64,000 nt of DNA from a phage: sequence record PZ386974.1, one strand, 5' to 3'. Below are positions 9,528-29,785 of this stretch, piece after piece (the first letter of the stretch is position 1; each line of letters starts with the position of its first letter). The notes under the pieces are model-generated. The model was not told the origin of the DNA and did no database searches. It was given only the letters and a program-made list of their open reading frames with translations. The position numbers and the translations under genes were made by a program.

Positions 9528-9548
9528 AGACCAGGCGGCACCTGGTCA
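9528..9548 (-). terminator. Hairpin GACCAGG-tgccg-CCTGGTC at the 3' end of the nrdH-like gene
   Basis: 7 bp perfect stem overlapping the stop codon, followed by a T-rich tract on the minus strand; coordinates approximate. Confidence 0.4.
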
Positions 9549-9869
9549 ATCTTCTATGATATCAGAGTCATATCCTAATGAAATCAAGGACTTTTTAAAC
9601 TCTGCAATATTCTTTTGTTTCTTATCATTTAAAAATATGACAGGATAACGAATATTAAGTGAAGTGAATCCTGCACGTTTAGCAAGAGATACGATTAAAG
9701 GACGGTCATATTCAATCTTACCATTATTAGTGAGGACTTTATAAAATGTATAAGGAGCATTGAGCTCCTTTAAAAGTTTTGTAACAGTATAACATCCTGG
9801 ACAACGTCCTACTTCTTCAGGGATGCCATAGATTTCAATCTTGTTCTTTAAGTTCGAGTTTTGTTCCAC
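9546..9869 (-). CDS. nrdH: Glutaredoxin-like protein (NrdH-like redoxin); start uncertain, probably GTG
   Basis: C-terminal ~100 aa KIEIYGIPEEVGRCPGCYTVTKLL... carries a CPGC redox motif; no in-frame ATG upstream of the domain; sits upstream of nrdG as in T4. Confidence 0.55.
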   Translation of the reverse strand: MEQNSNLKNKIEIYGIPEEVGRCPGCYTVTKLLKELNAPYTFYKVLTNNGKIEYDRPLIVSLAKRAGFTSLNIRYPVIFLNDKKQKNIAEFKKSLISLGYDSDIIED

Positions 9870-10153
9870 GAGAAATAATTCCTTGGTAAGCCCAATAAGG
9901 AGGATTAACAGAATCCTCGCCAGAGTTTTCTTCAGGAAAATAAACCTGGATAACAAATCCAGACTCATCAAAGGTAAAATAAACCGTAGGCAGTTCACCT
10001 AACAATTCGACACGAGCATTAATTTCTTCTAGATCTCGTTCACGTCCAGCCCAAAAAACTAGGATTTAGACTACATTCATAGAAATAATAGTCATTACCG
10101 AACATATCAAAACCTTTCCAACTCTCTACCACATACCGCTCAAAACTAATCAT
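9835..10153 (-). pseudogene. Frame-interrupted ORF: ATG at 10153, frame change at a T6 run, continues about 64 codons in the +1 frame
   Basis: Frame 1 MISFERYVVESWKGFDMFGNDYYFYECSLNPSFLGWT-stop; frame +1 continues WAGRERDLEEINARVELLGELPTVYFTFDESGFVIQVYFPEENSGEDSV... without a start codon; junction at TTTTTTGGG. Confidence 0.35.
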
Positions 10154-10155
10154 AA

Positions 10156-10371
10156 TTAAGCCTTTTTATCAAGAACAGAATTCAGTTTATTAGTAATTTT
10201 GTCCAAACGTTCATTGAATTCGCTGGAGGATAAACCCTTTTCTGGAGAAATTAAACTAATCACGAAAAATACACCAGTAAAAGGAATAAGAAAAATAGCT
10301 CCAACTGCCATAAACAAAAAGAACGTTACAGTTGTAAGAAAATCAGCTAAACCTTTACGAAATTTATACAT
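10156..10371 (-). CDS. Hypothetical small membrane protein
   Basis: 71 aa ORF with a hydrophobic helix (VTFFLFMAVGAIFLIPFTGVFFVISLI). Confidence 0.5.
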   Translation of the reverse strand: MYKFRKGLADFLTTVTFFLFMAVGAIFLIPFTGVFFVISLISPEKGLSSSEFNERLDKITNKLNSVLDKKA

Positions 10372-10481
10372 ATTTACCCTTAATTAACTAAGCATTGATA
10401 ATCATTAAACTATATTGCGAATAAAATTCTGGGCCAAAACGAAAAATCATATCATTTATAGTATCCATAATATAATTCAAT

Positions 10482-10952
10482 TTAATCATGTTTCCACACC
10501 CCATCGGTATTTGACCAAAGTCGCTGATTATCTGATCCTCGCCACAGCTTTTTAGTCGGAAGATTTTTCTCATACTTCCCATCAATAATAACATCAACAT
10601 ATTTAAGCATTTCTAGTTGTTTAATATCTTCAAACTTATATCCTGTCCACAACCAAATGCTTTTATTGGGATAAAGATTTTTTACTGTTTGAACAATGCG
10701 ATGAATAACATCTCGGTTATCAGGATAGAGAGGGTCTCCTCCGGTTATAGTTAATCCTTCTATATAATCATTATTCAAACATTCAATTAATTGTTCTAGT
10801 GTCTCTCCAGTGAATGGAACACCGTTTCTAGCATTCCATGTTGATTTATTATAACACCCTTCGCATTTATGCAAACAACCTGTGACGAAAAGAACGACCC
10901 TGCAACCAGGGCCATTCACAAAATCGCAAGGATAAAATCTATCATAATTCAT
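10482..10952 (-). CDS. nrdG: Anaerobic ribonucleotide reductase activating protein NrdG (radical SAM)
   Basis: 156 aa; CLHKCEGCYN radical-SAM cysteine motif; immediately downstream of nrdD with an ATGA overlap. Confidence 0.9.
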   Translation of the reverse strand: MNYDRFYPCDFVNGPGCRVVLFVTGCLHKCEGCYNKSTWNARNGVPFTGETLEQLIECLNNDYIEGLTITGGDPLYPDNRDVIHRIVQTVKNLYPNKSIWLWTGYKFEDIKQLEMLKYVDVIIDGKYEKNLPTKKLWRGSDNQRLWSNTDGVWKHD

Positions 10953-29721: not shown

Positions 29722-29785
29722 TTTTTGTTTCCTTGTTTGTTTTGATAGAGTAATTATACCATATTAATACTTAAGCGTAAACAAT

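Follow-up and report, generated by a model that had tools for sequence, protein, structure and literature searches.

How should a short open reading frame (ORF) that breaks at a run of six Ts immediately upstream of nrdH be interpreted, as a pseudogene, as a sequencing error, or as a site of programmed frameshifting, and does the same interruption extend into nrdH itself? The ORF lies on the minus strand of the window, that is, the whole stretch of 64,000 nucleotides of phage DNA that was analyzed (PZ386974.1). The window is a Mosigvirus segment, from an RB69-like T-even phage; moskry, mobillu, AlbertHofmann, and other phages share about 97% identity with it over 25 kb. The genes around the break run in the order nrdD, nrdG, a small ORF, a gp55.8-like gene, the broken ORF, nrdH, a terminator, and 55.6. 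The upstream neighbor of the broken ORF, which encodes a gp55.8-like small membrane protein (phrog_1930; 10156..10371, minus strand), has its stop codon 2 nt ahead of the ATG at 10153. Directly after the nrdH stop codon, there is a strong intrinsic terminator-like hairpin, GACCAGG...CCTGGTC followed by TTCTTT (9529..9547, minus strand), and relatives are annotated with a terminator in the matching region. The small ORF located between nrdG and the gp55.8-like gene (10388-10504, minus strand; MIKLNYIMDTINDMIFRFGPEFYSQYSLMIINA, some 33-38 codons) overlaps the stop codon of nrdG; several relatives have it annotated as a hypothetical protein, and Tequatrovirus ECML-134 carries it too. As detailed below, the break itself is nothing more than an ordinary insertion of one base in a homopolymer of a known conserved hypothetical gene and represents either a knock-out allele of recent origin or an error in the consensus.

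The ATG at 10153-10151 (minus strand) opens an ORF of 37 codons, with the product MISFERYVVESWKGFDMFGNDYYFYECSLNPSFLGWT, that terminates at the TGA at 10042-10040, as stated in an earlier note on this DNA. Alignment to intact orthologs identifies this ORF as the 5' fragment (10040..10153, minus strand) of a broken gene, a homolog of RB69 ORF082c (phrog_2749). The fragment consists of native codons 1-33, followed by four out-of-frame codons (LGWT) and the TGA, so that the truncated product ends in ...NPSFLGWT. The 3' part of the gene, that is, native codons 34-105 and a TGA (9835..10053, minus strand), lies in the +1 frame, which is closed by a TAA at 10068-10066 and is open from 10065 to the TGA at 9837-9835. 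This frame is indeed open, as previously noticed, but the original count of about 64 codons was too low: the open stretch spans 76 codons, 72 of which are sense codons past the junction. The absence of a usual start in this frame holds as well, given that there is no ATG and the sole candidate start is a TTG at 10005. The two frames are jointly open over 10065-10043 only, and this stretch encompasses the T6 run, with a GGG directly after it, which places the junction at the T6 run, where it had originally been located. The T6 homopolymer (10053..10058, minus strand) is the site of a one-base insertion, with relatives carrying either T5 or, with synonymous changes, AGC TTC at this place. The insertion converts the T5 run into T6 at codons Ser32-Phe33-Trp34, and the position of the frameshift coincides with a conserved NPxF(W/F) motif. 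The tryptic peptide that would span the junction in the predicted full-length shifted product is GFDMFGNDYYFYECSLNPSFWAGR.

The comparison of sequences indicates that the two ORF pieces are one gene, the RB69 ORF082c homolog, located between gp55.8 and nrdH. In the window as it stands, the match to phrog_2749 is split across two frames. When one T is removed, the 105-aa product matches this profile with an E-value of 4.1e-49 (residues 1-100 of 105 aligned to profile positions 1-99 of 100); a chance pair of adjacent ORFs is excluded by this end-to-end match. The same product is 100% identical to a protein of phage ECO26.1 3-1 (tblastn). The regional alignment of the window with SSE1, moskry, NicPhage, and JS09 contains a single indel column, at the T run. 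At the junction, relatives have AGT TTT TGG, and NicPhage has CCA AGC TTC TGG, all the differences in NicPhage being synonymous in an uninterrupted single frame. Thus, the relatives carry a single 318-nt ORF, which is annotated, for example, as moskry_99, bas47_0180, or 'RB69ORF082c-like'.

Intact copies of this gene are common. In a tblastn search, at least 80% of the protein was covered in 526 of the 527 phage records, and all 39 rows with at least 80% coverage among the matches listed were single-piece. The amino acid identity to the orthologs is 93-100% for Mosigvirus and some Tequatrovirus phages and drops to 39-50% for Dhakavirus, Mosugukvirus, and Kanagawavirus. In Mosigvirus, Dhakavirus, Kanagawavirus, and some Tequatrovirus phages, the gene is flanked by 55.8 and nrdH, and the window conforms to this family-typical arrangement, with the 3' end of the gene overlapping the nrdH start. 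In a collection of 5.8 billion proteins, the family comprises 26 protein clusters, all of them stand-alone proteins of 92-105 aa. Among five close sequences, 0, 3, and 20 variable sites fall in codon positions 1, 2, and 3, respectively, and the bias is the same on either side of the junction, from which it follows that purifying selection acts on the intact single frame. Compared to the RB69 ORF082c-like protein (phrog_2749), the copy in the window occupies the same position and has the same length once one T is removed; it differs in that the frame is broken at codon 33/34 by the T5-to-T6 change, which is unmatched among the public copies searched. In the literature, we looked for a paper mentioning ORF082c and found none.

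Judging by five public sequence collections, the T6 run is a one-base insertion unique to this sequence. A 40-mer containing T6, for which each 28-nt megablast word covers the entire T run, yielded no matches in 50,697 phage records, whereas the control, a 39-mer containing T5, was found in 170 phage records (147 of them exact matches). There was also no match to the T6 40-mer in complete E. coli genomes, and none to a T6 26-mer in IMG/VR, JGI metagenome contigs, or GTDB genome contigs; the T5 form occurs once in IMG/VR. A look-up of the exact 37-aa product and of the exact NrdD protein in an assembly index found neither of them. Another sporadic broken copy of the gene is represented by a Logan assembly protein, P0002, a 101-aa variant with a different frameshift, near codon 91 (...YQGNYFSWNKTQT).

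We give about an even chance to the possibility that the insertion is real and represents a slipped-strand (Streisinger-type) frameshift, very recent and specific to this lineage, in a dispensable gene, which would make the gene a young pseudogene. Streisinger-type slipped-strand frameshifts at short homopolymers are classic, in particular, at the rII and lysozyme hotspots of phage T4. The case described here resembles these T-even frameshifts in that it involves a single-base gain within a run, in a non-essential gene, with other lesions absent; the difference is that, in this case, the event is deduced from the comparison with relatives and is indistinguishable from a consensus error. Such an error of sequencing or assembly, which we consider a serious contender, if a less probable one, would imply a true T5 run and an intact 105-codon gene, with the sixth T of the homopolymer miscalled in the consensus. 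Errors in homopolymer length are the classic type, the T6 allele was seen only once across all the public sequences searched, and comparable singletons exist in public data (the A7 'fusion' of phage PM2, discussed below, and the P0002 variant). Furthermore, removal of one T suffices to give a protein 100% identical to that of an intact ortholog, and there is no second lesion. A decayed pseudogene would be expected to display several lesions and relaxed substitutions; we found a single lesion in this gene, with the rest encoding a protein 100% identical to the intact ortholog. Because the lesion is single and the remainder of the ORF is intact, it has to be very young if it is real; an artifact and a mutation of very recent origin would account equally well for the flawless rest of the ORF.

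The distribution of indels across the window bears on this choice. The indel comparison covered AlbertHofmann (49 kb), ECO26.1 3-1 (32 kb), vB_EQ1 (10 kb), and moskry, which aligns with most of the window. Although the window contains 278 homopolymer runs of 5 or more, no frame-breaking indels in coding sequences, other than the one described here, were detected in the moskry-aligned parts, which argues against a consensus error. More precisely, position 10053 is the only isolated indel of a length not divisible by three that falls in an annotated coding sequence, as defined by the moskry annotation, in the moskry-aligned parts of the 64 kb. The remaining isolated indels, of 1-2 nt, map to intergenic regions, often to the spacers between Shine-Dalgarno sequences and start codons (5549, 9405/9453, 19332, 29725, 37914, and 41160). 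Random homopolymer miscalls would mostly strike coding sequences, whereas the observed pattern, in which the remaining 1-nt homopolymer differences are all intergenic, is what real variation filtered by selection predicts; it therefore argues against an error-rich assembly. For the same reason, and given the 278 runs, a platform with systematic homopolymer error is unlikely: the signature of such error, that is, multiple frame-breaking indels in conserved genes, was not found in the moskry-aligned parts. The absence of other frame breaks in coding sequences thus lowers the prior for an artifact, without bringing it to zero. A T6 run is also short for an Illumina consensus error.

Four of the intergenic positions, 19332, 29725, 37914, and 41160, are isolated 1-nt homopolymer differences from every relative that was compared. 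Several such differences affect the spacer between the Shine-Dalgarno sequence and the start codon, for example, AGGAAACAAAAAATG at 29725. Differences in the length of this spacer could tune translation.

The ORF082c gene is missing or reduced in some related phages. In T4 and ECML-134, the gene is wholly absent, and nrdH directly follows 55.8. In Shigella phage CT01 (OK018184.1; positions 512-775 of the locus compared), an in-frame deletion fuses gp55.8 to the terminal portion of ORF082c, about 24 codons long, and the remnant is exactly the stretch that bears the Shine-Dalgarno sequence and the GTG start codon of nrdH. The CT01 deletion shows both the dispensability of ORF082c and the constraint that the initiation of nrdH translation places on the 3' end of this gene. 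Together, the absence of the gene from T4 and ECML-134 and its near-complete deletion in CT01 indicate that it is dispensable in nature. This dispensability, along with the indel pattern, is the reason why we rank a real insertion slightly above a consensus error. The presence of T6 in the phage DNA itself is what we infer, and the decision between the two possibilities rests with the sequencing reads.

If the insertion is real, a slipped-strand event would have added a T to the T5 run, shifting the frame such that translation ends after 37 codons. The truncated 37-residue product would lack half of the six strands predicted for the fold, as well as the long helix, and should be inactive. The NrdH protein would still be produced from its own Shine-Dalgarno sequence and GTG start. 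With the stop codon of the mutant frame 171 nt ahead of the nrdH GTG, translational coupling into nrdH might be lost. A small fraction of the ribosomes may skip one U at AGU_UUU_UUG and so yield the exact wild-type protein, which would be an incidental outcome.

The latter possibility stems from the known behavior of this type of sequence. The UUU_Ynn sequence is especially prone to +1 frameshifting in bacteria and is found at the YopN-TyeA shift site (Atkins et al. 2016, PMC5009743); +1 frameshifting at UUU_Ynn, either incidental or utilized, is documented in E. coli argI and in Yersinia YopN-TyeA (PMC5009743). Given that AGU_UUU_UUG carries the +1-prone UUU_Y, the allele in the window, if T6 is real, may be leaky. 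As in argI and YopN-TyeA, a shift-prone site is present, and the mutant UUU_U sits exactly where a +1 shift restores the native protein; unlike in those cases, conservation and a stimulator are missing, so that the shift would be a leak 'correcting' an indel rather than an evolved signal. Any leak of the wild-type protein thus may be incidental and not programmed.

It appears quite improbable to us that T6 is real and that +1 slippage at AGU_UUU_UUG supplies a useful amount of the full-length protein. Were this the case, slippage of useful yield in a T-even phage would be a natural example of a fresh indel being 'corrected' in translation. Separately, and with the same low expectation, the gene product could work with NrdH: the invariable adjacency to and overlap with nrdH and the single ORF deposited for PM2 suggest that the protein could act together with NrdH in anaerobic nucleotide reduction.

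An even slimmer chance is given to programmed +1 ribosomal frameshifting, under which T6 would be a functional recoding site that yields the 37-aa and the full-length products in a set ratio. The geometry of the site is compatible with such a role: AGU_UUU_UUG lies within the shift window 10065-10043, tRNA-Phe could re-pair perfectly in the +1 frame (UUU to UUU), the shifted product (...S-F-W-A...) would have exactly the wild-type sequence, and UUU_Ynn is a documented +1-prone site in bacteria (PMC5009743). However, the two-frame arrangement is not conserved: 170 records have T5 and none has T6, whereas others have AGC TTC, which is not slippery. Nor does the site display the stimulators expected of programmed frameshifting, namely, a stop or very slow codon in the A site, an upstream Shine-Dalgarno-like element, or a downstream structure. 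The A-site codon is a sense codon, UUG, rather than a stop; there is no Shine-Dalgarno-like (GGAGG-like) element within 20 nt upstream of the T6 site (sequence GUCUAAAUCCUAG); and an 86-nt fold at and after the site is no better than those of shuffled sequences (z = +0.86). An Rfam search of the site matched no family, returning only a meaningless sub-threshold hit. Hence, of the three alternatives raised in the earlier note, pseudogene and sequencing error stand, and programmed frameshifting is disfavored because the orthologs have T5 and are uninterrupted, T6 occurs in none of them, and stimulators are absent. Transcriptional slippage or phase variation, which usually needs runs of 8-9 or more, was rejected given that a run of 6 is too short.

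A different question is whether nrdH depends on the broken gene for its translation. The nrdH gene (107 codons; 9546..9869, minus strand) encodes a T4-type NrdH glutaredoxin with a CPGC motif that is 86% identical to T4 NrdH over 100 residues and matches phrog_22 with an E-value of 1e-15; the match to Pfam Glutaredoxin is sub-threshold, with 21 bits against a cut-off of 22.9. As previously observed, there is no ATG ahead of the conserved core of this frame. This, however, does not amount to a missing start: the frame has a GTG at 9869-9867, with a Shine-Dalgarno sequence, AAGGA (9880..9884, minus strand), 10 nt ahead of it, within the codons for a conserved YQG in the upstream gene. By these sequence features, nrdH has a normal GTG start of its own, separate from the upstream gene. 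In the T4 RefSeq genome, NrdH (NP_049686.1) likewise starts at a GTG, which is preceded by AAGGAA and lies two bases past the 55.8 stop codon. The Shine-Dalgarno sequence and the GTG are also present in ECML-134, DalCa, and Dhakavirus VR5 (AAGGAG, 9 nt, GTG), and Kanagawavirus IME523 has a GTG at the equivalent position and in the equivalent frame; in Jiaodavirus KPV15, the nrdH start is an ATG, within an ATGA overlap. Curated relatives are annotated with a 324-nt nrdH that starts from the GTG. The structure around the nrdH start is not unusual (z +0.24). Thus, the gene in the window resembles T4 nrdH in the CPGC motif, the AAGGAA-type Shine-Dalgarno sequence with GTG, and the location after 55.8 and downstream of nrdG; it differs in that the start region lies inside the 3' end of an extra upstream gene and in that the N-terminus is 5 residues longer.

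The earlier note also proposed that a second +1 shift, at an A4 run, fuses the upstream protein to NrdH, which would then have no start of its own. The geometry is right for such a fusion: the nrdH frame is +1 relative to the 3' piece of the broken gene, and the A4 run (9859..9862, minus strand) is contained in the 35-nt overlap between the two. Nevertheless, we attach almost no credence to this scenario, and the conserved nrdH start makes a second frameshift unnecessary. The GTG is conserved over four genera (Mosigvirus, Dhakavirus, Kanagawavirus, and Tequatrovirus), is preceded by a Shine-Dalgarno sequence also in T4 and ECML-134, which lack the upstream gene, and is the annotated start in the T4 RefSeq genome, where ORF082c is absent. 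The whole 35-nt overlap, including A4, is identical in the four closest relatives aligned, the A4 run being an ordinary part of the gene overlap. Furthermore, all 26 clusters of the ORF082c family are stand-alone (92-105 aa), and A_AAA_C would permit no +1 re-pairing of tRNA-Lys. Comparison of the orthologs finds independent genes with normal starts, the very observation that the earlier note had named as counting against its interpretation.

The one record that appears to favor a fusion is that of Pectobacterium phage PM2, deposited with both proteins as a single 199-aa ORF. Against it, PM2 stands alone as a single-piece match in 1201 records, with an A7 run at the junction that an additional A would fix. 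A natural nrdH fusion was rejected as a candidate on the outcome of the search with the PM2 199-aa query, which was single-piece in PM2 alone among the 1201 records; the singleton status and the A7 junction suggest that the PM2 fusion is probably another homopolymer indel. In the PM2 sequence (NC_028940.1; 395-994 of the locus compared), the ORF082c homolog and NrdH are deposited together as one 199-aa 'glutaredoxin', and one more A in the A7 run (GGAAAAAAATATCC) restores a GTG-initiated nrdH and a separate upstream stop codon.

The value of these observations lies mainly in correct annotation, and new biology is not implied. Both ORF fragments should be treated in the annotation as parts of a single frameshifted copy of a conserved hypothetical gene and marked for a read-level check. 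For nrdH, the start belongs at the GTG at 9869, with neither upstream extension, nor fusion, nor internal ATG, all of which are present in deposited annotations. A real insertion would mean that the window contains a natural knock-out of a conserved accessory gene located by the anaerobic ribonucleotide reductase genes, and such a knock-out would be usable in a search for a phenotype. Among the public annotations of this region, the start of ORF082c is misplaced at the internal Met16 in SSE1, JS09, and DalCa, and the gene is not called at all in IME523 and NicPhage. In NicPhage and vB_EQ1, nrdH is given 141 aa by an upstream extension that reads ORF082c in the wrong frame; in JS98, it is trimmed to an internal ATG, which removes the first strand.
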